From Armatimonadota bacterium (GTDB lineage: Bacteria; Armatimonadota; DTGP01; JAKQQT01): a stretch of 64,000 nucleotides of DNA. Where the stretch lies: positions 12,655 to 76,654 of the forward strand of contig DASXUL010000075.1 of the NCBI GenBank assembly GCA_036504855.1, in the 5' to 3' direction. The translations under genes and the position numbers were made by a program. Below the pieces are notes generated by a model. It was not told the DNA's origin and did no database searches. It was given only the letters and a program-made list of their open reading frames with translations. Within the stretch, counting starts at the first letter, position 1. Every line of letters starts with the position of its first letter. Below are positions 2,538-50,200 of the stretch, one piece after another.

Positions 2538-4217
2538 TCAGGCCCTCGCCTCGTCGCGAATGGCAAGGAGGTCTTTCATCACGTTGCTGAGGTCGGCGGT
2601 GTGGCCGGCGATGCCGAAGGCGTCGTGAAGCTGGCGGTACAGGGCGTAGAGGCGGTTGTAGACGGCGGCGTTTGCCGGGATGGGCGTGTAGGATGCATCT
2701 CTCACGCCGGTCATGGCGGCCACGGCTTCCCCGAAGGAAGCGTGTCCGCCCCGCTCCGGCCCGGCCACAACGGAGGCGGCGATGGCGGAGCCGAGGGCGC
2801 ATGTTTGGTCGCTGCGGCTCACCAGCATGGGGCGGCCCAGGATGTCGGCGTAGATCTGCATCACCGTGGGGTTCTTCGCCGCGATGCCGCCGCAGTTGAT
2901 CACGCGTTCGGCCTTCACCCCGTACTCCTCCAGCCGCTCCACGATGGCGCGGGCGCCGAAGGCGGTTGCCTCAACCAGCGCGCGGTAGATCTCGGCGGCC
3001 GTGCTGTGCAGGGTAAGCCCCAGGATCAGGCCGGTGAGCCGCTGGTCCACGAGGATGGTGCGGTTGCCGTTGTGCCAGTCCAGGCTCAGAAGGCCGCTCT
3101 CGCCGGGGCTCAGGGCGGCGGCGCCCCTGGTGAGGGCCTCGTGTCCGCCGGCGCCGGGGCGGATGACGTTCACAAACCAGTTGAAGATATCGCCCACCGC
3201 GCTCTGTCCGGCCTCCAACCCGTAGGCCTGGGGCAAGACGGACTCGGGCACAATGCCGCAGAGGCCGGGGATGTCCGGCAGGTTGGCGCTGAGGGGGGCG
3301 ACCATGATGTCGCATGTGGATGTGCCCATGATCTTCACGAGGGCATCCTCGGCAACGCCGGAGCCGACGGCGCCGAGGTGAGCGTCGAACGCGCCCACGG
3401 CCACCGGGATGCCCGCGGGCAGTCCCAGTTTGGCCGCCCACTCTTCGCTGAGGGTTCCGGCGGCATCGGCAATGGAGTACGTACGGTCCGGCAGGGTTGA
3501 GCGTACGCTGGCGAGCCGGGGGTCCACGGAGGCGAGGAAGTCCGCGTCCGGATAGCCGCCCCACGCCGGGTTCGCCATGGCCTTATGCCCGGCGGCGCAG
3601 ATGCCGCGGCGCACATCGGTGGAGTTCTGGATGCCGCAGAGGACGGCGGGGATCCAGTCGGCGCATTCCACCCAGGTATGGGCGGCGTTGAACACGTCGG
3701 GCGCCACGCGCGCGCAGTGCAGCAGCTTCGCCCAGAACCATTCGCTGCTGTAGCGTCCGCCGCACTTGGCGAGGTACTGCGGGCGCGCCTTCTCGGCGGC
3801 GGCCGTGATCTCGGCCGCCTCCGCGTGGCTGGTGTGGTCCTTCCACAGCCAGGCCATTGCGGCCGGGTGGTGGGCGTAGGACGTCTGGAAGGCCAGAGGA
3901 CGGTTGACGGCGTCCACCGGGATCGGCGTGCTGCCGGTGGTATCCACCCCGATGGCGATTACCTGCTCCGGGGCAAAGCCGGGCCGTTTAGCGGCCTTAT
4001 GCAGCACGTCGTTGGTGACGGTTTCCGCCCCAGCCAGATAGTCGCCCGGGTGCTGCCGGGCGAGGTTAGGATCCTGCGGGTCCAGGATGATGCCCGCCTC
4101 GCCGTGCGGGTAGTTGAAGACGCTGGTGGCGATTTCCTCACCGGAGGAAACGTCCACCAGCAGTCCGCGCACCGAATTGGTTCCGTAATCGAGGCCGAGA
4201 GTGTAATGGTTGCTCAT
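2538..4217 (-). CDS. araB: ribulokinase (FGGY carbohydrate kinase)
   Basis: The true start is the internal ATG at 4217 (MSNHYTLGLDYGTNSVRG). FGGY N- and C-terminal domains are present; length ~560 aa. The ORF-track extension to 4406 runs through the intergenic palindrome. Confidence 0.85.
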   Translation of the reverse strand: MSNHYTLGLDYGTNSVRGLLVDVSSGEEIATSVFNYPHGEAGIILDPQDPNLARQHPGDYLAGAETVTNDVLHKAAKRPGFAPEQVIAIGVDTTGSTPIPVDAVNRPLAFQTSYAHHPAAMAWLWKDHTSHAEAAEITAAAEKARPQYLAKCGGRYSSEWFWAKLLHCARVAPDVFNAAHTWVECADWIPAVLCGIQNSTDVRRGICAAGHKAMANPAWGGYPDADFLASVDPRLASVRSTLPDRTYSIADAAGTLSEEWAAKLGLPAGIPVAVGAFDAHLGAVGSGVAEDALVKIMGTSTCDIMVAPLSANLPDIPGLCGIVPESVLPQAYGLEAGQSAVGDIFNWFVNVIRPGAGGHEALTRGAAALSPGESGLLSLDWHNGNRTILVDQRLTGLILGLTLHSTAAEIYRALVEATAFGARAIVERLEEYGVKAERVINCGGIAAKNPTVMQIYADILGRPMLVSRSDQTCALGSAIAASVVAGPERGGHASFGEAVAAMTGVRDASYTPIPANAAVYNRLYALYRQLHDAFGIAGHTADLSNVMKDLLAIRDEARA

Positions 4218-7623: not shown

Positions 7624-7639
7624 ATGTACCTCAATCTGA

Positions 7640-7745
7640 AGTCATCAGTCGTCAGTAATCAGTATTCAGTCGGAAGGAATGCACGTCAGGATGCTGCCCT
7701 CACGGGCCAGGCCCATTGCTGATGACTGATCACTGACGACTGTGG
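7640..7745. repeat. CAGTC/GACTG stop-rich inverted-repeat element (family copy a)
   Basis: Left arm gtcatcagtcgtcagtaatcagtattcagtc; right arm gctgatgactgatcactgacgactg in inverted orientation around a ~45-nt core. It sits in an intergenic gap inside the Ubl operon. Confidence 0.6.
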
Positions 7746-34831: not shown

Positions 34832-35026
34832 TGTGAGTTCCCCCTAGACGGTTGAGGCGCCGAGCTTACGCGACTCTGGAATGCCCCCAGCCCGGCTTGC
34901 CATCCAGTCTAGCGACCGCTCCGGCGGGCCGCACAGCGCGCGGCGATGGCTCCGCGTTCTCACCTCGCCCCGCGCTAGACTGTTCCTATTGCGCGACCAA
35001 TGGGCCGCGCCAAAGGAGCATACGAC

Positions 35027-36763
35027 ATGCGAATGAGCCATCACTTCGGGGAGACGTTGCGGGCGGCGCCGGGCGATGCGGATGTGGTTGGACATCAACT
35101 ATTGCTGCGGGCCGGCTACATCCGCCCGCTGGCGGCCGGCATCTTCAGCTACCTGCCGCTGGGCCTGCGCGCCATGCGCAACATCGAGGCGATCATCCGC
35201 CAGGAGATCGAGGCCATCGGCGGGCAGGAAGTCTCCATGCCGGTGGTCCACCCGGCCGAGGTCTGGCGGGAAACGGGACGCTGGCAGGAGATCGGCGAGG
35301 AGATGGCGCGATTCAAGGACCGCGCCGGCCGCGACATGGCGCTGGCGATGACCCACGAAGAAGTGGTGGCCGACCTCGTTCGTCGCGAGGTTCACTCGTA
35401 CCGGCAGCTCCCCATGCTGATCTACCAGATACAGACGAAGTTCCGCGACGAGCGACGGCCCCGCGCCGGCCTGATCCGGGTGCGCGAGTTCACGATGAAG
35501 GACTCCTATAGCCTGGATGCGGACGATGAGGGGCTGGCGACGCAGTACGCGCGGCACCTGGAAGCCTACCATCGCATCTTCCAGCGAGTGGGCCTGCCGA
35601 ACGTCATCGCCGTTTGCTCCGACACCGGGATGATGGGCGGCAAGATCGCCCACGAGTTCATGTACCTCACGGAGATCGGGGAAGATACCCTGGCGCTGTG
35701 CGATGCCTGCGGCGCTTCCGCGAACCTTCAGGTGGCGTCTTTCCGCAAGCCCGCCGCCGTCCCCGAGGCGCTCCGGCCGTTGGAGAAGGTGGCCACGCCG
35801 GGAACGACCAGCATCGAGTCGCTGGCCGCCTTCCTGGGCGTGCCCGCCGAACGGACCGCCAAGGCCGTGTTCTTCACCGCCAGCCTGCCGGACCCGGAAC
35901 CCAAGGCGGCCGGCGCATCGCGCGACGCGCTGCTGATGGCGCTGGTTCGCGGCGACATGGACGTTAACGAAACGAAGCTCGCCAACGCGTCCGGCGCGCG
36001 CTCCTTGCGGCCCGCCACGGAGGCGGAGATCCGGGCAGCCGGCGCCGTTCCGGGCTACGCCTCCCCCATCGGCATGGACCGCGCCAACGCCATAGTCGTC
36101 ATCGACGATCTCGTGGCCGCCTCTCCGAACCTCGTCTCCGGCGCCAACGAGGAGGGGTTCCACTACCTGAACGTGAACGCCGGCCGCGACTATGCGCCGG
36201 ACGCAACGGCGGACATCGCCTCGGCCTGGGAGGGCGCGCCCTGCCTGGAGTGCGGCGCGCCGTTGCGCCTGGTCCGCGGCGTGGAGGTGGGCAACATCTT
36301 CCAGTTGGGCACGCGCTACACCGAGGCCATGGGCGCCACTTTCCTGGATGCGGAAGGCCAGGCGCGTCCGGTGGTGATGGGCTCCTACGGCATCGGCATC
36401 GGCCGCCTGCTGGCCTGCCTCGCCGAGGCGCATCACGACGACCGCGGCCTCACCCTGCCCGCCGCCGTGGCCCCCCACTCCGTTCACCTCGTGCGGTTGT
36501 GCGACAAGGACCCGCAGGTGGAGGCCGCCGCCGAGGAGTTGTACGCCGCCCTCATCGAAGCGGGCGTTGATGCGCTCTACGATGACCGCGACGCCATGGC
36601 CGGTGTGAAGTTCGCGGACGCCGACCTGATCGGCATCCCTCTGCGCGTCACCGTCAGCGCCCGCGCGCTGAAGGCCGGCGGCGCCGAACTGAAGCGCCGC
36701 GCCGAAACGGAAACCCGCATCGTGCCGCTGAATGAGGTGATGGAAGTCGTCAGTCGTCAGTGA
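35027..36763 (+). CDS. proS: prolyl-tRNA synthetase (bacterial type with editing domain)
   Basis: Collinear with bacterial ProRS (MRMSHHFGETLR...HQLLLRAGYIR...FADADLIGIP). The last 5 codons (VVSRQ*) are supplied by a CAGTC repeat element. Confidence 0.85.
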   Translation: MRMSHHFGETLRAAPGDADVVGHQLLLRAGYIRPLAAGIFSYLPLGLRAMRNIEAIIRQEIEAIGGQEVSMPVVHPAEVWRETGRWQEIGEEMARFKDRAGRDMALAMTHEEVVADLVRREVHSYRQLPMLIYQIQTKFRDERRPRAGLIRVREFTMKDSYSLDADDEGLATQYARHLEAYHRIFQRVGLPNVIAVCSDTGMMGGKIAHEFMYLTEIGEDTLALCDACGASANLQVASFRKPAAVPEALRPLEKVATPGTTSIESLAAFLGVPAERTAKAVFFTASLPDPEPKAAGASRDALLMALVRGDMDVNETKLANASGARSLRPATEAEIRAAGAVPGYASPIGMDRANAIVVIDDLVAASPNLVSGANEEGFHYLNVNAGRDYAPDATADIASAWEGAPCLECGAPLRLVRGVEVGNIFQLGTRYTEAMGATFLDAEGQARPVVMGSYGIGIGRLLACLAEAHHDDRGLTLPAAVAPHSVHLVRLCDKDPQVEAAAEELYAALIEAGVDALYDDRDAMAGVKFADADLIGIPLRVTVSARALKAGGAELKRRAETETRIVPLNEVMEVVSRQ

Positions 36764-36820
36764 TCAGTCATCAGTCCGGAGGGCGACCGCAAGGGTATGC
36801 CTTCCGGACTGATGATCTAG
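36746..36820. repeat. CAGTC/GACTG stop-rich repeat element (family copy b) overlapping the proS stop; left edge of the lower-GC island
   Basis: gtcgtcagtcgtcagtgatcagtcatcagtccgga-gggcgaccgcaagggtatgcc-ttccggactgatgatc. Confidence 0.6.
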
Positions 36821-37216
36821 GTCTCAGCCTCAAGACAGCGCCGCCTAGACGAGCGCAGGAGATGGAGGGCGTTCCTGGCTGTGCTGAACGAAAGGGCTAC
36901 GCTGATGTTTGCGTCGCGTAGTTTGGAGCGCGTGGGCGTTGGCCCCTAACGCGCCCCATGCTTACCACGGCCCAGACCTACCCGGGCTACAGGGCTTTCG
37001 CAACGAGCTCCGCGACTTTGGGAAGGGGCGGCATGGGCGAAACTGCGCTAGGATTGGAGAAGCGTTGATCATCCTTTTTGCTACGGAGCCACTGGCAGCG
37101 CCTACTCGGGGCAGAACCGCAGTTGGAAGCCGACATGCTGACGGGCACCCCAGCAGATTATGACACCGTCGACCGATAATCAGGCTTGTGGTACCTAGAT
37201 TTCGCAGGTACCTACG

Positions 37217-38416
37217 ATGTGCCAGACTGTGCCACAGAGCTATTCGCCGATACTTATGAGTACTACATTGAACCCTGCCATTGGACTCCTGAATTGGCAT
37301 CCGAGACAGACACTGGCCGAGATGACCGAAATCTACCTAGCGGATGAGCGTCCATGGATCATCGCATACAGTGGCGGCAAAGACTCCACAGCGGTAGTCC
37401 AGCTAGCGTATACGATGCTCTTTCGGTTGCCAGAACAATCCCGCACCAAGTCGATTTCCGTCATCAGCAATGATACCTTGGTCGAGGCACCCCCCGTCGC
37501 CGAGCACCTTCGCTCTTCCCTCGCCTCCATGGAGAGGGCCGCGATCAGGGACCAACTCCCTATTACCTTCGCCGTTACGACCCCAGAGCTCAAGAACCGA
37601 TTCTTTGTCAAGGTCATCGGTCGAGGGTACCCGGCGCCAAATCGCTATTTCCGCTGGTGCACCGACAAGATGAAGATTGGCCCGACCAGTGACTTTATCC
37701 GGCGCAAGATCAGTGAAGACGGCGAAGTCAATATACTTCTGGGGACCAGGCGCGCTGAGAGTTCTCAGAGGGCAAAGAGCATTGATAAGCACAAGGCACA
37801 GCATGGAATGGGTGCGCTGCGCGCCCACCCGAGTCTGGCAGGGGCTAAGGTGTACGCCCCGATTGAATCGTTGGAAACGGACGATGTATGGGCATACCTT
37901 CTAAGCTACCCGCCACCTTGGGACAAGCCGAATCGGGATCTCTGGGTCTTGTACGGGAAGGCCAGTGGGGTTGAGTGTCCAATCGTTCTCGACAAGACCT
38001 CTCAACCTTGTGGTGCAGGACGATTCGGGTGCTGGACGTGCACCGTAGTTCAAAAGGACAAGTCCCTTCAAGGTTTGGTTGACAATGGAGAGGAGACGCT
38101 CGAACCATTACTCGATTTCCGTGATTGGCTTAAGGGCTACCGTGATGACGTGAGTGTTCGCGAACCAACACGACGCAACGGGCGGCCAGGACCCGGACCG
38201 TTTACTCTTGCGGCACGGCAGACCATCTTGAACCGCCTAGTTCTGGCAGAACAGGAATCTGGGTTGATTCTACTGCACCCCGACGAACTAGAGGCAATCG
38301 CCGATCTATGGAGGGAAGATGGATTCGACGGCGAGATCTCGCCGAGCTCGCCACGCTATGGGGTTCCTAACGGAGGGCTAGAGGAGCGCAATCTACAGGA
38401 GGCTACCTACCGATGA
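37217..38416 (+). CDS. PP-loop ATP-pyrophosphatase, PAPS-reductase/DndC-like, with a C-terminal Cys cluster
   Basis: PP-loop 'IIAYSGGKDSTAV'. 'PCGAGRFGCWTCTVV' Cys motif as in DndC-type enzymes. Lower GC (~52%). Confidence 0.6.
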   Translation: MCQTVPQSYSPILMSTTLNPAIGLLNWHPRQTLAEMTEIYLADERPWIIAYSGGKDSTAVVQLAYTMLFRLPEQSRTKSISVISNDTLVEAPPVAEHLRSSLASMERAAIRDQLPITFAVTTPELKNRFFVKVIGRGYPAPNRYFRWCTDKMKIGPTSDFIRRKISEDGEVNILLGTRRAESSQRAKSIDKHKAQHGMGALRAHPSLAGAKVYAPIESLETDDVWAYLLSYPPPWDKPNRDLWVLYGKASGVECPIVLDKTSQPCGAGRFGCWTCTVVQKDKSLQGLVDNGEETLEPLLDFRDWLKGYRDDVSVREPTRRNGRPGPGPFTLAARQTILNRLVLAEQESGLILLHPDELEAIADLWREDGFDGEISPSSPRYGVPNGGLEERNLQEATYR

Positions 38417-38919
38417 CCGCAGATCAAGATTGTGACAGGCGAGACGGCTGGTTTGAATTTGGCCAGCAGCTTAAGTTGCGGGCAACGTGTCCATTCCATA
38501 GCCCTGCGGCAGTGTGGTATTTCCTATCAGTTATACTTGCGGTGAATGCCGTGTCAATCTGGCTATCGTACTCCTCACGGGGGACAGATGTGATTCCGTC
38601 GTCGATTCCCAGGCATATTGCCGTAACGGCGGTGGGGTTGCTTACGGCTGCAGCTGCGGACTTGGTTCTGGAGGCGGATTCGAAGACATCATTGCGAGCG
38701 TTCTGGACTGCCCTACTGATTTTTGGAGTCATCGCCATTGGATTTGCACACACGACCGGGTCCTGGTGGTCGTGGGGAGCAGCTGTTGGCGGTGTAACAA
38801 TCGCCTGCTTCATGTGGTGGTGCAGCACCGGAAACCGCCTGAATCTCCAGGACCGCGCAATCACGCCCCCTGGCGGTGATGGGCCACCCAGCGGAACAAC
38901 CGAAGGATACCAAGTATGA
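38413..38919 (+). CDS. small integral membrane protein (4 predicted TM helices), coupled between the DndC-like and DGQHR genes
   Basis: Overlapping start and stop codons on both sides. Hydrophobic helices. Confidence 0.5.
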   Translation: MTADQDCDRRDGWFEFGQQLKLRATCPFHSPAAVWYFLSVILAVNAVSIWLSYSSRGTDVIPSSIPRHIAVTAVGLLTAAAADLVLEADSKTSLRAFWTALLIFGVIAIGFAHTTGSWWSWGAAVGGVTIACFMWWCSTGNRLNLQDRAITPPGGDGPPSGTTEGYQV

Positions 38920-40229
38920 ACATCGAATCAGCGATATGCCCGTACCTGGCCCCAGCCATCCGGATCGAACAGCCATTGGGTGAGTTCTTTGTGGCGGCGA
39001 TTCCCGCCCGAGTGCTCCTTGCTACGGCGTTCACAAACTACTTTCGTATTCCTAAGAGGGATCCACAGATCGAAGCGTATCCGGCAATCGGGCTGCAGCG
39101 GGCAAAGAGTGATCATCGACTGCGGGAGTTGGAAAGATATATTCAGTCAGTGGATGCTGCCTTTCCGAATTCGATTATTCTCGCAGCGAACGAGGCGAGC
39201 AGTGGGCAGCCGCCAATCCAGGAGTCTGAGCAGTGGAGCATCGTTACTACTGGGAACGAGGGACTGGCACTGCGGATCCCGACGCTTCGCGAAGCTGCTA
39301 GCATTATCGACGGCCAGCACCGCTTAGAGGGGTTCCGAAATGTGCCTGAGGATCAAAAGGGCATGGCACTGCTCTGCGCAGTCTATTTCGACTTGCCTGT
39401 TGCTTACCAAGCATACGTCTTCGCCACGATCAACTTCAACCAGAAGAAAGTGGACCGAAGTCTCGCTTACGACCTATTCGGATATGCGATAGAGAACGAA
39501 CCTCCTAATGCGTGGACCCCGGACGTTCTGGCCGTCTACATAACTCGAAGGCTCAACATGGACCCCGAGTCTCCTCTCCATAGGCGTATCATTGTTGCAG
39601 CCAAGGACTCCGATGCCCTATTCTCGACTCCACTTGGAAAGGGTGAATGGCGCGTATCTACTGCCACAGTCGTAGACGGAGTTCTGAGGTTAGTGTCTGC
39701 ACACCCGTCTCTTGACCGCGATCGCATGCGAACGGCTCCGATCGCCAAGAGAAGCCGACAAATGTTGAGTGTCGACAGCGCACCATTCCGAAAAGCGTTT
39801 CTTGAGGGAAATGACATCCTGGTTTACCTCGCCACTGTCAATTTCCTCAATGCGCTTCAGCATATCGTCTGGGTGGATCAGCCGAGAGAGTCGTTTCTAT
39901 TCAAAACGGTCGGCATTCAGGCATCGTTCGAGCTCTTGGCCGAGTTGATTCCGCTTTGCCTAGCTAACTCGGACTTTCGCTATGATCTTTTCGCGCGGAT
40001 TCTGGAGGGTGTCGGGACCTGTGACTTCTCGCAGCCGTTCTTCCAGCAGTCGTCTTCGGTAGGTCGCATTCGGATATTGCAGTGCCTGCGCTATCTAGTA
40101 GGGCTCGTCGACATTAACGGCCTTCCAGAAAGGGACAACGAGCTGTATCGCGGCGCCCTGAAGAGTAGCCGTCAATCGACCTTTCAGATTCGTGAAAGCA
40201 ATCCCAACCAGGGAAGCTCTAGAGCATAG
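38916..40229 (+). CDS. DGQHR-domain protein (DndB-like family)
   Basis: An explicit 'IIDGQHRLEGF' motif. ~437 aa, matching DndB-family size. Confidence 0.65.
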   Translation: MNIESAICPYLAPAIRIEQPLGEFFVAAIPARVLLATAFTNYFRIPKRDPQIEAYPAIGLQRAKSDHRLRELERYIQSVDAAFPNSIILAANEASSGQPPIQESEQWSIVTTGNEGLALRIPTLREAASIIDGQHRLEGFRNVPEDQKGMALLCAVYFDLPVAYQAYVFATINFNQKKVDRSLAYDLFGYAIENEPPNAWTPDVLAVYITRRLNMDPESPLHRRIIVAAKDSDALFSTPLGKGEWRVSTATVVDGVLRLVSAHPSLDRDRMRTAPIAKRSRQMLSVDSAPFRKAFLEGNDILVYLATVNFLNALQHIVWVDQPRESFLFKTVGIQASFELLAELIPLCLANSDFRYDLFARILEGVGTCDFSQPFFQQSSSVGRIRILQCLRYLVGLVDINGLPERDNELYRGALKSSRQSTFQIRESNPNQGSSRA

Positions 40230-40253: not shown

Positions 40254-40955
40254 ATGAGACACACCGAAGCAGAGGAGGAAACTCATCGGTTCTATGAGAC
40301 CAGAGGATGCCACTGGTCGTCCACGAGATTGGCCGCGGATTACTGGGAACCGGAGCTTTGTCAGTTTCGCCAGTTATTGGCTTCTGGGAGCATCCTTGAC
40401 GCAGGTTGCGGAAACGGCCGCGATTACGACTTTTTCCGCCGGGTTGGCTATTCATACACCGGCATTGATGTCTCCAGCCAAATGCTTGCAATTGCCCGGG
40501 ACAACCATCCAGATGGCGCGTTTGCCAGCATGGATGTCTGTGATCTTGCGTTTGATTCGCTAGCATTCGATGGCATCTGGTGCGTTGCCGTTCTACTGCA
40601 TTTTCCTAAAGCTGTGGTTGATCGTCCTCTTCAGGAGTTGTGTCGCGTACTCCGAAAAGGCGGCGTTGTCTTTTTCGCGGTTCGTGACGGAAGCCGCGAG
40701 TACATGAGCGAGGAACAAGAAGGCACACAGAGATTCTTTGCCGAGTATTCGGTAGACGAGCTTTCGGACCGATTGTCTCAGAGTGGATTGACGCCGATCC
40801 ACGTTTGTACGCGGGATGCTCCAGGTGAAGATCAGGCTCGGTGGACCACCGCATTTGCGGTCAAGGGCGAAGTTGAGGGAAGCCATCAGGAGGTCATGGG
40901 TGGACACAAGAGTTCGCACCGTCACGATTCGATCATTCAACAAGTTTCATTCTGA
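40254..40955 (+). CDS. class I SAM-dependent methyltransferase
   Basis: Motif I 'ILDAGCGNGRD'. Motif post-I/II 'GIDVS', 'FDGIW'. Confidence 0.7.
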   Translation: MRHTEAEEETHRFYETRGCHWSSTRLAADYWEPELCQFRQLLASGSILDAGCGNGRDYDFFRRVGYSYTGIDVSSQMLAIARDNHPDGAFASMDVCDLAFDSLAFDGIWCVAVLLHFPKAVVDRPLQELCRVLRKGGVVFFAVRDGSREYMSEEQEGTQRFFAEYSVDELSDRLSQSGLTPIHVCTRDAPGEDQARWTTAFAVKGEVEGSHQEVMGGHKSSHRHDSIIQQVSF

Positions 40956-41616
40956 GGTATCCAGTCATCAAGACGAGTGGTCGAATTGGTGCTACAGAGG
41001 CAGCAACAGCGGCAAACATCATCTCGTGCCGAAGTCCGGTAGAGATCCATTCGCGCCAGATGATGTGGATACGGATAAGAAGATGTTTGAGCGGTGGAAG
41101 CAACTCGCCGTTGCCGACATACCAACCCATGCGAGAGATGACTGGGATCTCCTTGCTATCGCTCAGCATCATGGCCTCGCCACAAGACTCCTAGACTGGA
41201 CTTATAACGCACTAATAGCGGCCTTCTTTGCGGTTGTAGACTCGCGTAGCCTCTCTGTCCCTAACGAGGATTGCGTTGTGTGGGCCCATTATACGAAGGA
41301 GACTGTTGACCCACAGAAGGAAGAGCCGTTTGGTGTTACCGGGTACAAGCGCCTTCGGCCGAAGGGGGTGGTGCCTAGGGTGGTTCGTCAGGGCGGATAC
41401 TTCACGATACACAATCCTCCGTCAACCGCTCTGGAGGACAAACTGAATCCGGAGGACAAGCTTGTAAGGATGATCATCAAGGGCTCGTATCGTTCTACAC
41501 TTGCTATTGAGTTGTCTCACTATGGCGTTAACTCAATGAGTCTGTTCCCGGATCTTGATGGCCTAGCAAGGCATTTGAATTGGGTCTTCACGAGCATGCC
41601 TTCAGAATCGGCCTAG
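40816..41616 (+). CDS. FRG-domain protein (start uncertain; no canonical start downstream of the MTase stop)
   Basis: 'WSNWCYRGSNSGKHHLVP' resembles the FRG-domain core (W..FRGQ...L.P). The ORF overlaps the MTase 3' end by ~140 nt as drawn. Confidence 0.4.
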   Translation: MLQVKIRLGGPPHLRSRAKLREAIRRSWVDTRVRTVTIRSFNKFHSEVSSHQDEWSNWCYRGSNSGKHHLVPKSGRDPFAPDDVDTDKKMFERWKQLAVADIPTHARDDWDLLAIAQHHGLATRLLDWTYNALIAAFFAVVDSRSLSVPNEDCVVWAHYTKETVDPQKEEPFGVTGYKRLRPKGVVPRVVRQGGYFTIHNPPSTALEDKLNPEDKLVRMIIKGSYRSTLAIELSHYGVNSMSLFPDLDGLARHLNWVFTSMPSESA

Positions 41617-41694: not shown

Positions 41695-41901
41695 ATGGTA
41701 TCGTACAAGGAAATCCAGAGATGGGTTCGGGAGGAGTATGGGTTCGTCCCGAAGTCGTGTTGGATAGCTCATGGGAAGGAGTTGAGCGGAATTCCGACGC
41801 GGGTCGCTATGAACCGAAAGGGTGAACGGGCTTTCCCATGCCCTTCAGGTAAACTCGCTGCAATCGTTGCAGGATTCAAGCACTTTGGTCTCATTCGGTA
41901 G
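41695..41901 (+). CDS. small hypothetical protein (68 aa)
   Basis: ATG-initiated ORF with low-GC codon usage like the rest of the island. No recognisable motif. Confidence 0.3.
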   Translation: MVSYKEIQRWVREEYGFVPKSCWIAHGKELSGIPTRVAMNRKGERAFPCPSGKLAAIVAGFKHFGLIR

Positions 41902-41907
41902 GCGCTG

Positions 41908-41938
41908 TAGGCCGACCTGATCGGCATCGCGTTGCGCG
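41908..41938. repeat. 31-nt near-identical (28/31) direct copy of an internal proS segment (36617-36647, codons ADLIGIPLRV), at the right island boundary
   Basis: gccgacctgatcggcatcgcgttgcgcgtca versus proS gccgacctgatcggcatccctctgcgcgtca. Confidence 0.6.
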
Positions 41939-42075
41939 TCAGTCATCAGTCATCAGTCAGGCGACCTTGGCCTCATCGGGAGGCAATCTCATGGAGCAAG
42001 GCCTCCGGACTGACAACTGACAACTGACAACTGATGACTGACGACTGATCACTGATCGCTGACGGCTGACAGCTG
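41937..42075. repeat. CAGTC/GACTG stop-rich repeat element (family copy c), abutting the PHP gene stop
   Basis: agtcatcagtcatcagtcag-gcgacc...cctccggactg-acaactgacaactgacaactgatgactgacgactgatcactgatcgctgacggctgacagctg. Confidence 0.6.
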
Positions 42076-42079
42076 TTCC

Positions 42080-43324
42080 TCAGAACCGTTTACCCCAAAC
42101 GAGGCCGGGGTGCGGGAAGAGGTGGAACTGGGCGGTGTCGGCGTGGGTGTGCTTGCCCAGCCACGCGCCGATGCCCTCGGTGTCGGAGCCGAAGGCGGAG
42201 CCCAGCGTGAAGAGGAGGCGCGGCAGGCCGCGGCGGAGGGCGCGGCGTTCCGCGCTATCGTCAAAGCGCGTATCGGCTTGCGTGCGGCCGGCCAGGATGG
42301 CGGCGCGCACGCCGTCAGCGGTAGCGGGGCAGTTCTCCATCACGGTATAACAGGCGCCGACGACCGCCGGGTCGTGCGCGTCGCTGCTGCCGATGGCGGG
42401 CTTGCGAACCGTTCGGTAGAACGCCTCGCGCGTATCCTCCCCGTGGCGGGCCATGGCGAAGTGCATCTCTTCAGCGGCGTTTTCCGTTTCCACCGCATCG
42501 AACGGCAGCGCGTTGGCGAGATCCTTCACGCCGTCCGGGAGCTGCGGGTGCGCCGCGATGGCGATTCCGCCCTGGGCGTGGATCTCCTCCACGGTGTGCG
42601 CGGCGCTCATCCCCGGCGCGATCTCCTGCGTGAGAAACAGCCCCACGATGTGCCCCTGGGCGCTGCTGATCTCCTCGCCGGGGATCACCAGAAAACTCGC
42701 CGGCGCCTTGCCCTCGCGGATCAGGCCTGGCAGGGCTTCCTGGGCCTTGTGGACGCCGCCCATCGTGTTGTGGTCCGTGATGGCGATGCCGGAGAGCCCG
42801 CGGTAGGCGGCGGCGCGCAACATCTGCACGGGGTCGGCCAGGGAATCGTGGCTGTAGCAGGTGTGCACGTGGAGATCGAGGGCGAGGCCGCCGGGCGGCG
42901 GGGTGATGCGCGCATCCGCGTTGAGGTGGCGCACCGAGGCGCGTTTGGCGTAGGTGGCATAGAGGTCGCCCTGCGGACGGAAGAGGATTTCGGTGAGGTT
43001 GCCGTTGCGCAAGAGCGGCAGGGAGAGCAGGAACTTGTTGCGCAAAGCATTGAGGTCCACATCGCCGGGCTCCGTGGCGTTGCCGAAGAGGCGTTCCATC
43101 TCGAAGAGAGACCCCAGCCCGAAGCTGCCCTGCAGGTTGGGGGCGTCCAGGCCGAACACGAGGGATGGCGGGGTCCGGCCGCTGATCACCTGCTCGTCGT
43201 ACCAGTGGTCCTTCGCCTGGTGGACCCAGTAGGGATCCTGGTTGCTGGCGGGGGACTGGGCGCGGGCGGTTGATGCGGCTGCGGCGACGGTCGCGACAAA
43301 GGCGAACAGCAGTAGAGGTTTCAT
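42080..43324 (-). CDS. secreted PHP-domain (polymerase/histidinol-phosphatase family) metal-dependent phosphoesterase
   Basis: Signal peptide MKPLLLFAFVATVAAAASTARA. PHP motifs 'DLHVHTCYSHDS' and 'GIAITDHN'. Confidence 0.6.
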   Translation of the reverse strand: MKPLLLFAFVATVAAAASTARAQSPASNQDPYWVHQAKDHWYDEQVISGRTPPSLVFGLDAPNLQGSFGLGSLFEMERLFGNATEPGDVDLNALRNKFLLSLPLLRNGNLTEILFRPQGDLYATYAKRASVRHLNADARITPPPGGLALDLHVHTCYSHDSLADPVQMLRAAAYRGLSGIAITDHNTMGGVHKAQEALPGLIREGKAPASFLVIPGEEISSAQGHIVGLFLTQEIAPGMSAAHTVEEIHAQGGIAIAAHPQLPDGVKDLANALPFDAVETENAAEEMHFAMARHGEDTREAFYRTVRKPAIGSSDAHDPAVVGACYTVMENCPATADGVRAAILAGRTQADTRFDDSAERRALRRGLPRLLFTLGSAFGSDTEGIGAWLGKHTHADTAQFHLFPHPGLVWGKRF

Positions 43325-44055
43325 ACGGGTTCTACTCCGCGGACGGACGGGCATCTCAGGATGCGAAAGAGGAGGCCAAGGCGGCCCGCGCGGTGCGAGA
43401 CGCTGACGCGGGGCAGGCGGTATGGGTCCTCGCCGCTCACCACGCGGCGTTTCTCCGTGGTGACGGCCAAGCTGTATCCAGCTTCTTCAACACCACAGCG
43501 CACGGCGGCGTTCACGCAACCGCTAGGATAGCAGAACGATGGCACGGAGATCCCGAGCGCGGACTCCAGGTCAGCCTTGCCGCCCACGAGCTCGCGCGTG
43601 AGGCGCTCCGCGTCGGCTTTGCACAGGTCTGTATGGGTCATGGTGTGGGCTCCGATGTCCCACCCGTCGTCTCTGAGATCGCCGAGTTGTTCCAACGTGA
43701 GCAGCGGCCGCCCCTTCAACGTGGCGGCGGGTTCCCAGTCGTTCGTCTGCCCCACATAGCCGCTCACGACGAAGACGGTGGCCGTGAACCCCATTTCCTT
43801 CAGAACGGGCCGCACGGACCAGTGCAGGTCCGCGTCGCCGTCGTCGAAGGTGAGGGCGAATCGTTTGGCGGGCAGCGGCTCCTTCGCTCTCAGTTTTGCG
43901 GCGAGATCCTGAAGGGAGATGGAAGTCCAACCGATGTTTTTCAGAAGCCTCATATGCGCCGCGAACACGGGCGCGTGGCAGAAGATGCTGGCGTGGCGGC
44001 GGACGGTGGGGTGATCGCCCACGAAATGATAGGTGAGAATTGGAACGTTACGCAT
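43321..44055 (-). CDS. polysaccharide deacetylase (NodB-homology / CE4) family protein
   Basis: 'FALTFDDGDADLHW' and 'ATVFVVSGYVG' CE4 motifs. Confidence 0.6.
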   Translation of the reverse strand: MRNVPILTYHFVGDHPTVRRHASIFCHAPVFAAHMRLLKNIGWTSISLQDLAAKLRAKEPLPAKRFALTFDDGDADLHWSVRPVLKEMGFTATVFVVSGYVGQTNDWEPAATLKGRPLLTLEQLGDLRDDGWDIGAHTMTHTDLCKADAERLTRELVGGKADLESALGISVPSFCYPSGCVNAAVRCGVEEAGYSLAVTTEKRRVVSGEDPYRLPRVSVSHRAGRLGLLFRILRCPSVRGVEPV

Positions 44056-46921: not shown

Positions 46922-47054
46922 TGTCCGCCATCAGCTATCAGCCGTCAGTTGTCAGCCAGAAGGTTGGGACATGAGGCTCTTTCAGTGCCCAGTTAGGGAG
47001 GATCTGTCAGAGAGCAAGCTTGCGGATCGCATCGGATGCTTATGATCTCCACGC

Positions 47055-47227: not shown

Positions 47228-50200
47228 ATGGAACAGGAATTCCAGCCGAAGAAAAGGCTTGTGTGGTCCGATGACGGAGGCTGGCGAACGAACGACGGCC
47301 GGCCCGCTTCCGCGCCGGTTCCGCCGCCTCCCCCTCCCCCCGCCGCGCCGGCCTCCTATGTGGAGCTGCACTGCCACAGCCAGCACAGCCTGCGCGACGG
47401 CGCGGCGCACATTGAGGACCTCGCGGCCCGCGCCAAGGCCCTCGGCATGCCGGCCCTGGGCGTTACCGACCACGATTCCATGGCCGTGGCCCCGGAGTTC
47501 CGCGCGGCCGCCGTGGCGGAGGGGGTGAAGCCCATCCAGGGCGTGGAGGTTTCCTTCGCCGGGCATGCCGGCGGCGCTTTCCACCTGACGCTGCTGGCCG
47601 AAACCGATGAGGGCTTCGGGCATCTCTGCGAAATCCTCACGCTCATGCGGGGGCCGATGTCCACGGTGTTGCGCCCGCAGGAGACGGCCCCGGACGCGCC
47701 CTCCCGCCGCAACCCGTTCGCCACGATGGACATGCTAACCGGCCGCGCCAAGGGCATCCTCTGCCTCACCGGCTGCGCCAAGGGGAAGCTGGCCCACCAC
47801 CTGTTGCGCCGCGAGGAAGAAGAAGCCGAACAAACGCTCGGTTTGTGGGCGGACCTCTTCGGCAAGGAGAACGTCTTCGTGGAATTGCAGGACCACAAGC
47901 GCGGCTTCGAGCCATCGCTGAACCGCCGCCTGTGCGAACTGGCGGATCGCTTCGACCTGCCCGTTGTGGCCACCAACAATGTGCATTTCCTGGCGCGCGC
48001 CGATTTCTGGGTGCACGAGGCCATGGCCTGCTGGCGCGCCGGCCGCCTCAGCCGCACCGCCGTGTTCCCGGAGCGTCCCCGCAGCGCCGAAGCGTACCTG
48101 AAGGGCGCGGATGAGATCGCCCGCCTCTTCCGGCCCCGCCCCGACGCCCTCTCCAACACCCTCGCCATCGCGGAGCGGTGCACTCCCGTGTTGGACCCCG
48201 CTGTGCGCCGCTGGCCGGATTTCACGCCGCCCCCCGGCTTCACCGAGGATTCCTATCTGGACCACCTGGTGGGGCTGGGAGCGCGCGCCCGGTACGGCGC
48301 CAACGTGCCCGCCGAAGTGTGCCGCCGCATCCAGTACGAGCTGCGCCTCATCCGCGCCAAGGGCTTCTGCGGCTATTTCCTGCTGGTGTGGGCGGTCTGC
48401 CGCTGGATGCGGCAGGTGGATATCCTCTATCGCGTGCGCGGCTCGGCCGGCGGCAGCGTTGTGGCCTATTGCCTCTACATTGCCACCCTGGACCCGTTCG
48501 TATATGACCTGTCCTTCGACCGCTTCCTGAACGAGGCCCGCAGCGCGCCGCCGGATATCGACCTGGATATCGACAGCCGCGAGCGCGACCGCGTGGTGGA
48601 CCACCTGCGCCAGATGTATGGACGCGACCGCGTGGCCAGCGTGGCCGCCTACAGCACCATCCGGGGGAAATCCCTGATCCGCGATTTCGGGCCCGTGTTC
48701 GATCTGCCGCCGGATGTTATTGACCTCGCCAGCAAGTCCCTGCGCAACGTGGGGGCGCACCACCTGGGCGAGGCGTTCGAGGGCCTCCCGCAACTGCGCG
48801 ACGCCGGCATCCCCAAGGAGCCCTTCCAGCCGCTCATCGACCTCGGCCTGAAGATATCGCGCTTCCCCAGCCACACCCAGACCACCGTGGGTGTGGTGAT
48901 CTCCGGCCTGCCGCTGACCCAGGTCTCCCCGCTCTGGCCCGCCGCCAAGGACGGCCAGGCAGCCGTTTCCTACGACAAGGACTGGGTGGAGCGCGTTGGC
49001 CTCATCAAAACCGACTTCCTCTTCCTCCGCGAACTCGCCGCCATCCGCGACTGCGTGAGAAGCATGGAGAAGGGATCGGATTCCGGATCCCGGATTCCGG
49101 ATTCCGACATGGATGCGGAGCCGGCCTGCATACAGGAAGCTTTCGCCGCTGATCGGATTCCGGATTCCGACATGGACTCGCGGGAGGTGATCTGCGGGAG
49201 TGAGCCAGCCACAAAGGGTCGGAATCCGGAATCCGGAATGCGGGCCCCGATCTCTCTTCCGAATCCGGAATCCGGAATCCGGACCCCGATTTCCTCTTTC
49301 GACTATGACGGTATTCCTCTGGACGATCCGGATACGTTTGCGCTGCTGGCCTCGGGGCGCACCATTGGGGTTTTCCAGTTGGAGAGCCCGGCGCAGCGGG
49401 TGCTGATGCAGCGGATGAGGCCCTCGCACATCAAGGATTGCGTGGCGGCGGTGGCGCTGATCCGGCCGGGGCCGATCACTGGCGACGCCGTGACGCCCTT
49501 CGTGGTCCGCCGCACCGGGCGCGAGCCGGTCACCTATCCGGACGAGCGTCTGCGGCCCGTGCTGGAGGATACGTACGGCGTGGTGATTTACCAGGATCAG
49601 GTGATCGAGCTGGCCATGGCCGCCGCCGGCTGGAGCCCGGACCGGGCGGACCAGTTGCGCCGCCGCATCAGCCACGCCCGCAGCAAGGACATGATGCGCG
49701 ACATCCAGGTGGAGTTCATCGCCGCGGTGTTGGCTCAAGGCTTTACGCAGGAGGTAGCGGACTGGTGTTTCAAGAGCATCCTGGGTTTCGCCAGCTACGG
49801 CTTCTGCCATGCCCACGCGGCGGCCTTCGGGGAGACCGCCTACAAGAGCGCCTACCTGCTGGCCCATTACCCCAGCCACTACCTGATGGGCATTATGAAC
49901 AATTACCCGATGGCCTACTATCCGTTGCGAACGGTGGTGGCCGAGGCGCGCCGGCGCGGGGTAAAGGTGCTTCCCCCGGACGTGAACCGCAGCCAGGCGG
50001 ATGACATCGCCAACGACACGACCATCCGCGCGGGGCTGAAGCACGTTCACGGCATCAAGCGCCGCACGCTGGAGGCTATTGCAGCGGCGCGCGCCGAGGG
50101 CTCCTTCCCCACCGTGCCGGAGTTCTGCGCGCGCGTTCCCGTCTCGCGTGACGAGGTGGAATCGCTGGCGCTGGCCGGGGCGTTCGATGCGCTGCACCCG

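Follow-up and report, generated by a model that had tools for sequence, protein, structure and literature searches.

A 31-nt repeat of an internal proS segment at the far border of a foreign defence island, probably the scar of an old insertion

The window analysed in this study, a 64-kb stretch of DNA taken as a whole, contains a single compositionally foreign block adjacent to the prolyl-tRNA synthetase gene proS, and the far border of this block is marked by a 31-nt fragment of that same gene. Overall, the locus is best regarded as an ordinary decayed defence island with a target-derived border repeat, probably representing the scar of an old insertion. Since a same-orientation fragment of the adjacent gene is found exactly at the far border, the best explanation for the pair of 31-mers is a Campbell-type insertion—that is, of a circle into the chromosome—into the 3′ part of proS, to which a probability of about 0.5 is given here.

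The two copies of the repeat, both on the plus strand, are located at positions 36620–36650, within proS, and 41911–41941, i.e. they are direct repeats 5291 nt apart. The left copy, GCCGACCTGATCGGCATCCCTCTGCGCGTCA, and the right copy, GCCGACCTGATCGGCATCGCGTTGCGCGTCA, are identical at 28 of 31 positions, the first 18 bases matching contiguously and the differences being confined to positions 19, 21 and 22. The sequence-only reading of the window had described the existence of the near-perfect direct repeat, its 28 identities and its 18 contiguous bases correctly, but had placed both copies 3 nt too far to the left (36617–36647 and 41908–41938). It should be pointed out that an exact 18-mer repeat anywhere in 64 kb was obtained in 27 of 200 order-2 Markov simulations (13 %) and is hence unremarkable alone; the peptide ADLIGI, when written in preferred codons, yields exactly the 18-nt identical run. 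The full match of 28/31 is, by comparison, beyond chance. A second copy arose in none of 100 shuffles, the E-value of the pair in blastn-short is 1.1e-5, and in 400 simulated host-like flanks of 9.9 kb, compared with the terminal 300 nt of proS and a further 60 nt, the best 31-nt window reached 21–24 identities and never 25 or more. No third copy was found within the 64-kb window even with up to three mismatches allowed; the occurrence of the 31-mer at many unrelated places, named beforehand as an observation that would speak against an integration, was therefore not seen there.

The gene proS (35000–36763, plus strand) encodes a bacterial-type prolyl-tRNA synthetase (ProRS) of 587 residues counted from the first ATG, with the Pfam domains tRNA-synt_2b, tRNA_edit and HGTP_anticodon; the start annotated at NCBI lies 9 codons downstream of that ATG, and the protein is 100 % identical to one from an NCBI MAG. 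The left copy begins at a codon boundary 144 nt before the stop and encodes ADLIGIPLRV, residues 541–550 of ProRS, this being the most conserved nucleotide stretch of proS across the 160 loci compared. The right copy is an isolated proS fragment that reads ADLIGIALRV, with a TAG in frame directly before it; when the entire window was searched with a C-terminal profile derived from related ProRSs, 41911–41943 came out as the best non-proS match. Another candidate for a second proS fragment, at the left edge (36902–36940; LMFASRSLERVGV vs LTFSSRSLEKGGV, tblastn E 0.11) and resembling the piece next to the motif, fell outside the top 20 profile matches and was dismissed as chance. Concerning the origin of the right copy, distant proS genes match the 31-mer at 27–29 of 31 positions—29/31 in Ornatilinea apprima and 27/31 in many loci with 60–65 % protein identity—so that its source is ambiguous; with three mismatches to the proS of the window, it could, judged by sequence, equally derive from another GC-rich proS.

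The DNA between the two copies differs clearly in composition from its surroundings. A single low-GC block is present in the 64 kb, at 37–42 kb, with GC of 0.536–0.564 per kb, every other kilobase having at least 0.598; the block covers about 5.1 kb with GC of 0.53–0.56 vs 0.65–0.70 in the host DNA. The same is seen at third codon positions (GC3), where the island genes show 0.54–0.61, as against 0.87–0.91 for proS, the GH43 gene and the PHP gene and 0.78–0.79 for the next two genes. The island is compositionally foreign, as integrative elements characteristically are. Its right border is sharp, the right copy beginning 9 nt after the last island ORF and coinciding with the GC step from 0.53–0.56 to 0.68–0.72. 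The left edge is less sharp, being located somewhere inside a stretch of about 500 nt that contains no convincing gene and has an intermediate GC (36824–37321; GC 0.50–0.68 in a 60-nt profile), the ORFs of which gave no significant match in Pfam, NCBIfam or PHROG. A search for tRNA and Rfam features at the island borders yielded none apart from spurious matches of miRNA models on the hairpin. To the right of the island, the host DNA resumes with a gene convergent with proS that encodes a PHP-domain protein (42080–43354, minus strand; Pfam PHP and PHP_C; GC3 0.88).

Six genes, all on the plus strand, make up the island, their cargo being typical of mobile defence islands. The first (37217–38416; start at 37322 by the JGI call; GC3 0.61) encodes a DndC-like sulfurtransferase of the PAPS-reductase family, which scores 374.5 bits with TIGR03183 (DndC), exceeding the cut-off of 290.4, and is recognized as DndC also by PADLOC (E 5.5e-122). 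It is followed by the gene for a predicted membrane protein of 168 residues (38413–38919), its start overlapping the dndC stop, for which no family match was found in Pfam, PADLOC or NCBIfam, and by that for a DGQHR-domain protein (38916–40229), DndB/DpdB-like and of the ‘DGQHR protein 1’ type (TIGR04172, 394.6 bits with a cut-off of 450; TIGR03187, 156 bits with a cut-off of 58.85). The remaining genes encode a class I SAM-dependent methyltransferase (40254–40955; Pfam Methyltransf_11 and Methyltransf_25), an FRG-domain protein (40816–41616; Pfam FRG, E 2.4e-21; PADLOC PDC-S15, E 3e-69; also called by JGI) and a 68-residue product (41695–41901) that matches phrog_27283, of unknown function, with an E-value of 1.9e-13. 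Between the methyltransferase ORF and the FRG ORF in its longest form there is an overlap of 140 nt (40816–40955); in the JGI calls the FRG gene starts at about 41026 (196 residues) and the methyltransferase gene at about 40329 (208 residues), and the true FRG start is probably the one at 41026–41027, as in that call. As for the 68-residue ORF, only three homologues exist among 5.8 billion proteins, one of which, 55 % identical, lies in a defence island, flanked by GmrSD and MmeI/Eco57I-type genes.

The segment 37217–40229, i.e. DndC, the 168-residue membrane protein and ‘DGQHR protein 1’, is held together by overlapping start and stop codons and resembles the Dnd phosphorothioation clusters with ‘DGQHR protein 1’, having a DndC above its cut-off and an ORF of about 170 residues preceding the DGQHR gene. 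Homologues that are 43–46 % identical belong to full dnd clusters, where a small ORF is paired with a DGQHR gene as well; in three such loci (L163, L164 and L166) the small ORF has 164–180 residues. The nearest homologues of the DGQHR protein, at most 48 % identical, likewise sit in full dnd clusters and not beside proS. The island differs from these clusters in that DndA/IscS, DndD and DndE, which accompany the homologues in L163–L166, are missing among its ORFs, and in that the methyltransferase and the FRG protein follow. The reduced dnd-like set may be either a minimal variant or a remnant. A search for relatives of the island revealed no DNA similarity in plasmids or phages beyond a 78-nt stretch of dndC, and viral contigs contained no relatives.

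With regard to the machinery of insertion, the absence of an integrase from the island, already noted from the sequence, was confirmed by scanning all island ORFs against Pfam, NCBIfam, PADLOC and PHROGs: no gene or recognizable pseudogene for an integrase, excisionase or transposase was detected, the ORFs of the non-coding ends included, and the JGI gene calls for 31.1–46.8 kb contain no recombinase. Of the hallmarks of an integrative element, the island has target-derived direct repeats at both borders and lacks a gene inside for a tyrosine or serine recombinase, which is usually located beside an att site. The earlier proposal to look for tyrosine integrases targeting proS led to no proS-targeting element, either in viral contigs or, by the repeat scan and one integrase query, in the 160 other proS loci, the one exception being a duplication without an integrase in L045. 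In particular, no attP-like proS fragment beside an integrase was found in the viral contigs of IMG/VR, and tblastn with a tyrosine integrase from L164—a weak test, relying on a single query—revealed no homologue in the window or the 160 loci. A search of the literature retrieved no report of proS as an attachment site.

Both borders are associated with hairpins whose arms are built of heptamer repeats. The left one (36745–36823) consists of an AGTCATC-type array, a loop and a GATGACT-type array, has a period of 7 in TRF, overlaps the proS stop and folds as RNA with −44.4 kcal/mol (z −6.0). The right one (41937–42075), also detected by TRF, folds with −59.8 kcal/mol (z −4.3) and reaches to within 4 nt of the PHP stop codon; its perfect outer stem of 14 bp (CGTCAGTCATCAGT/ACTGATGACTGACG) begins with CGTCA, the last 5 nt of the right copy. 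A third hairpin of the same kind is present between convergent genes at 7639–7742, and arrays similar to these hairpins follow proS in other Chloroflexota (L023, L034 and L045). Since such elements occur at another site of the window and also downstream of proS in further Chloroflexota, the hairpins are native to the lineage and not island cargo, and the initial idea that the left hairpin (repeat element b of the sequence-only reading) is island-borne finds no support.

The same can be said of the present end of proS, which had been assumed to be island-borne, too, and looks host-like instead. The 31 codons following the motif (551–581) have a GC3 of 0.87, which agrees with proS (0.89) and the host genes at its sides but not with the island genes (0.54–0.61). 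The peptide that they encode is 0.52 identical to the 15 nearest ProRSs, vs 0.56 among those relatives themselves, and the preceding 38 residues exhibit the same pattern (0.58 vs 0.63), so that the C-terminus is no more distant from the nearest ProRSs than the adjoining portion of its domain. An in-gene 3′ end that is element-derived and distinguishable as such, as is characteristic of gene-end replacement, was accordingly not observed in proS (GC3 0.87 vs 0.89). It is also worth mentioning that the ProRS of the window is devoid of a C-terminal tail of about 20–25 residues present in all its nearest relatives. The last five codons of the gene with the stop (VVSRQ*, 36745–36763) are themselves heptamer-array sequence, and the original gene end seems to have given way to the array.

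At the right border, the copy runs straight into the hairpin, only codons 541–550 being present there. Codons 551–587, which a displaced proS end would comprise, are absent after the right copy, and no remnant of them could be recognized in or after the hairpin (p 0.85). It is plausible that the duplicated unit was originally longer, comprising the proS end and its hairpin, and that 109 nt were lost in the right copy between two CGTCA microhomologies. The array after the right copy matches at 21 of 22 positions under this reading, yet the arrays represent a repeat family; outside the heptamer arrays the similarity of the hairpin centres is not significant (p 0.16), and what speaks for the 109-nt deletion is therefore array similarity at the family level only. 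The possibility of one ancestral hairpin split by the insertion was considered as well, the left arm of the first hairpin pairing with the right arm of the second one at 84 %; this value is, however, uninformative because the 7-nt periodicity allows every register to pair so.

The comparative material consisted of 160 fetched proS loci and of a ProRS search covering genomes, metagenomes and 5.8 billion proteins. ProRSs identical to that of the window were found only in the same population—on a 79-kb contig of the NCBI MAG assigned there to Armatimonadota and on one contig each from JGI and Logan—and the latter two contigs, 100 % identical to the window, carry the island. The Logan assembly breaks inside the right heptamer array. 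The next best ProRSs are 74–75 % identical. An empty site, which was to be expected in related genomes free of the island, was not found among the genomes, metagenomes and proteins searched, in which no relative is closer than those 74–75 %; moreover, the genes flanking proS in the window have no counterpart in the 160 proS loci and the contigs of the five closest relatives (P0003, P0004, P0006, P0011 and P0014), their gene order being different. As regards taxonomy, the source MAG is labelled Armatimonadota at NCBI and most of the nearest named ProRS homologues originate from MAGs labelled Chloroflexota.

A scan of all 160 loci for a duplication of the respective proS end yielded a single clear example, L045, which belongs to a Chloroflexi MAG from groundwater (JACRMI010000114.1). 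Here the terminal 140 nt of proS recur with 94 % identity 1.8 kb downstream, the two copies (1882–2021 and 3681–3820) flanking a heptamer array and a single GAF-GGDEF gene. The inserted DNA has neither an integrase nor a GC shift, and the duplication starts at a point different from that in the window. About half of the differences between the copies, as read from the alignment, are synonymous, which hints that they may come from two functional alleles, the numbers being small. This locus shows that the duplication of the proS end around inserted DNA recurs, and as an independent occurrence it counts among the arguments for the Campbell-type insertion.

According to the preferred explanation, the Campbell-type insertion, a crossover in or to the right of the conserved ADLIGIPLRV-coding stretch would have placed the foreign defence island of roughly 5.1 kb (about 36.82/37.0–41.91 kb) between an intact proS, to its left, and a fragment of that gene, to its right. 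The recombinase gene would have been lost since, or the enzyme would have acted in trans, so that what is left may resemble an integrase-less, CIME-like remnant. The right fragment would later have been shortened to 31 nt and joined, as the sequence of the junction suggests, at the CGTCA microhomology to the native hairpin terminating the PHP gene. Site-specific integration into the 3′ part of proS, as originally proposed, is partly supported, in that the repeat brackets a foreign island devoid of an integrase, the right copy stands at the GC step and the fragment at the far border fits. Besides the lack of a recombinase gene in the island and of an empty site or an attP-like counterpart in the material searched, two points count against the Campbell-type insertion: of proS only 31 nt are seen at the right end, where a displaced end with 37 more codons would be expected, and the in-gene end is host-like, which is unexpected if it arrived with the low-GC cargo. 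Recombination between the two copies would at present be predicted to fuse codon 550 of proS to the hairpin and to remove 37 codons; because ProRS would be truncated in this way, the island is probably fixed in place, whatever the mechanism of its insertion.

The main rival, itself less likely than not, is an insertion without any dedicated site-specific recombinase, the island having been captured by homologous or by illegitimate (microhomology-mediated or replication template-switch) recombination. A 3′ piece of proS would then have been copied to the far side, or a fragment of a donor proS imported, and the 31-mer would be a by-product rather than an att core. Such an event would agree with an island that contains no recombinase, with the 5-nt CGTCA microhomology at the junction of the right copy and the hairpin, with the host-like end of proS and with the conservation of the 31-mer, which is high enough to let it act as a short anchor of homology even across distant genomes. 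L045 offers an argument in the same direction, since the same layout there, with a GAF-GGDEF gene of normal GC, no integrase and another starting point, speaks against one fixed att core. The sharp left edge of the homology and the position of the right copy exactly at the island border, by contrast, fit a defined crossover, and 31 nt—or the 18 identical ones—are short for RecA-dependent recombination. Illegitimate insertions of 5 kb that generate duplications are, in addition, less well documented than those mediated by integrases, which also weighs against a recombinase-free event.

An improbable version, in fact a narrower sub-case of the Campbell-type insertion, places the crossover within the 31-mer itself, so that everything from 36651 onwards, i.e. 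the C-terminus of proS and the left hairpin, would be derived from the island and the original end of the gene would be found after the right copy. A core located inside a gene would, in the textbook view, give precisely this arrangement, e14 in icd being an example (PMC6379469). The version is opposed, however, by the GC3 of codons 551–581, which at 0.87 has the host value, by the peptide, which groups with the same relatives as does the remainder of ProRS, by the heptamer hairpins being native to the genome and the lineage, and by the lack of an original proS end after the right copy.

The viral contigs provided a caution regarding the 31-mer. The 20-mer GCCGAYCTGATCGGCATCGC, part of the right copy, was found by scanning IMG/VR in 16 contigs (L170–L185), none of them related to proS; in about half of the 16 it lies in the gene of a phage protein family characterized by the peptide ADLIGIARLD (…GDVIVIADLIGIARLDIEAHTLGSLAVVGVFD…), which shares the 20-nt stretch with the right copy purely by codon choice. 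The family illustrates how, in GC-rich DNA, a short conserved peptide can produce a look-alike of an att repeat. That the right copy is unrelated to the insertion, being a remnant of another ADLIGIA-encoding gene in GC-rich codons or a product of chance, is nevertheless very improbable: although the phage 20-mer and the ease with which preferred codons and simulated windows (13 %) give an 18-nt run lend it some colour, 28/31 was never approached in the 400 simulations (maximum 24), the phage family reaches only 24–26/31 with no similarity beyond or upstream, an in-frame TAG precedes the right copy, and the partner gene adjoins the island, with the copy at its border and in the same orientation, for which the joint probability is, as a rough estimate, about 1e-6.

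Integrative elements are known to target the 3′ ends of tRNA and housekeeping genes, such as lysS, rpsI, guaA and fda in the case of streptococcal ICEs and IMEs, and their cores are usually found at the very end of the gene. The island shares with the streptococcal elements the 3′ region of a conserved gene and a direct repeat at the border, but its repeat starts as far as 144 nt before the stop. The closest documented parallel is offered by e14 and phage 21, which integrate in icd of Escherichia coli and leave a duplicated 3′ fragment, icdC (PMC6379469, PMC13626634); as in the window, the target is the 3′ part of an essential housekeeping gene, which remains whole at one border while a directly oriented piece of it marks the opposite one. 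The e14 element keeps, however, its integrase and a 163-bp pseudo-end, whereas the island has no integrase, a fragment of 31 nt (10 codons) fused to a hairpin and an in-gene end that does not look foreign. For att-flanked elements that have decayed and lost their integrase, the term CIME is in use (PMC5704250); the island has in common with them the foreign block, the lack of recombinase and transfer genes and a pair of direct repeats from the 3′ part of the target gene, which would be candidate recombinase sites. It differs from CIMEs in that no cognate integrase-bearing element with the same att is known or was found in IMG/VR or the 160 loci, in that the repeats differ at 3 of 31 positions, and in that recombination between the copies would truncate proS, making mobilisation doubtful.

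If the Campbell-type insertion is correct, proS would be a further housekeeping gene with a conserved 3′ part that mobile DNA uses as a landing site, and a small defence module—DndC, the DGQHR protein, the methyltransferase and the FRG protein—would have become fixed beside an essential gene in a poorly sampled uncultured lineage. It may be speculated, albeit with more doubt than confidence, that the ADLIGIPLRV-coding stretch is the attachment site of an as yet unseen family of integrative elements in a Chloroflexota/Armatimonadota-like lineage, the island being its locked-in integrase-less remnant. A wilder variant would have the heptamer-armed hairpins after proS promote both the capture of foreign genes and the duplication of the gene end, a combination seen twice, in the window and in L045. 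No new mechanism is revealed by this locus; its value lies in the borders of the island being marked and in the reduced dnd-like set and the heptamer hairpins being brought to attention.

Concerning the hairpins, they form a family with arms of tandem heptamers, AGTCATC-type on the left and NNACTGA-type on the right, located at the 3′ ends of convergent genes and folding with z from −4.3 to −6.0. The NNACTGA core is reminiscent of a repeated heptamer, TAACTGA, known from Beggiatoaceae, cyanobacteria and Bacteroidetes (PMC4679880). A possible further member is the array at 46922–46958, its folding not being significant, and a different heptamer array (CGGATTC/GAATCCG) extends over several blocks at 49077–49302, including a higher-order repeat of 39 nt.
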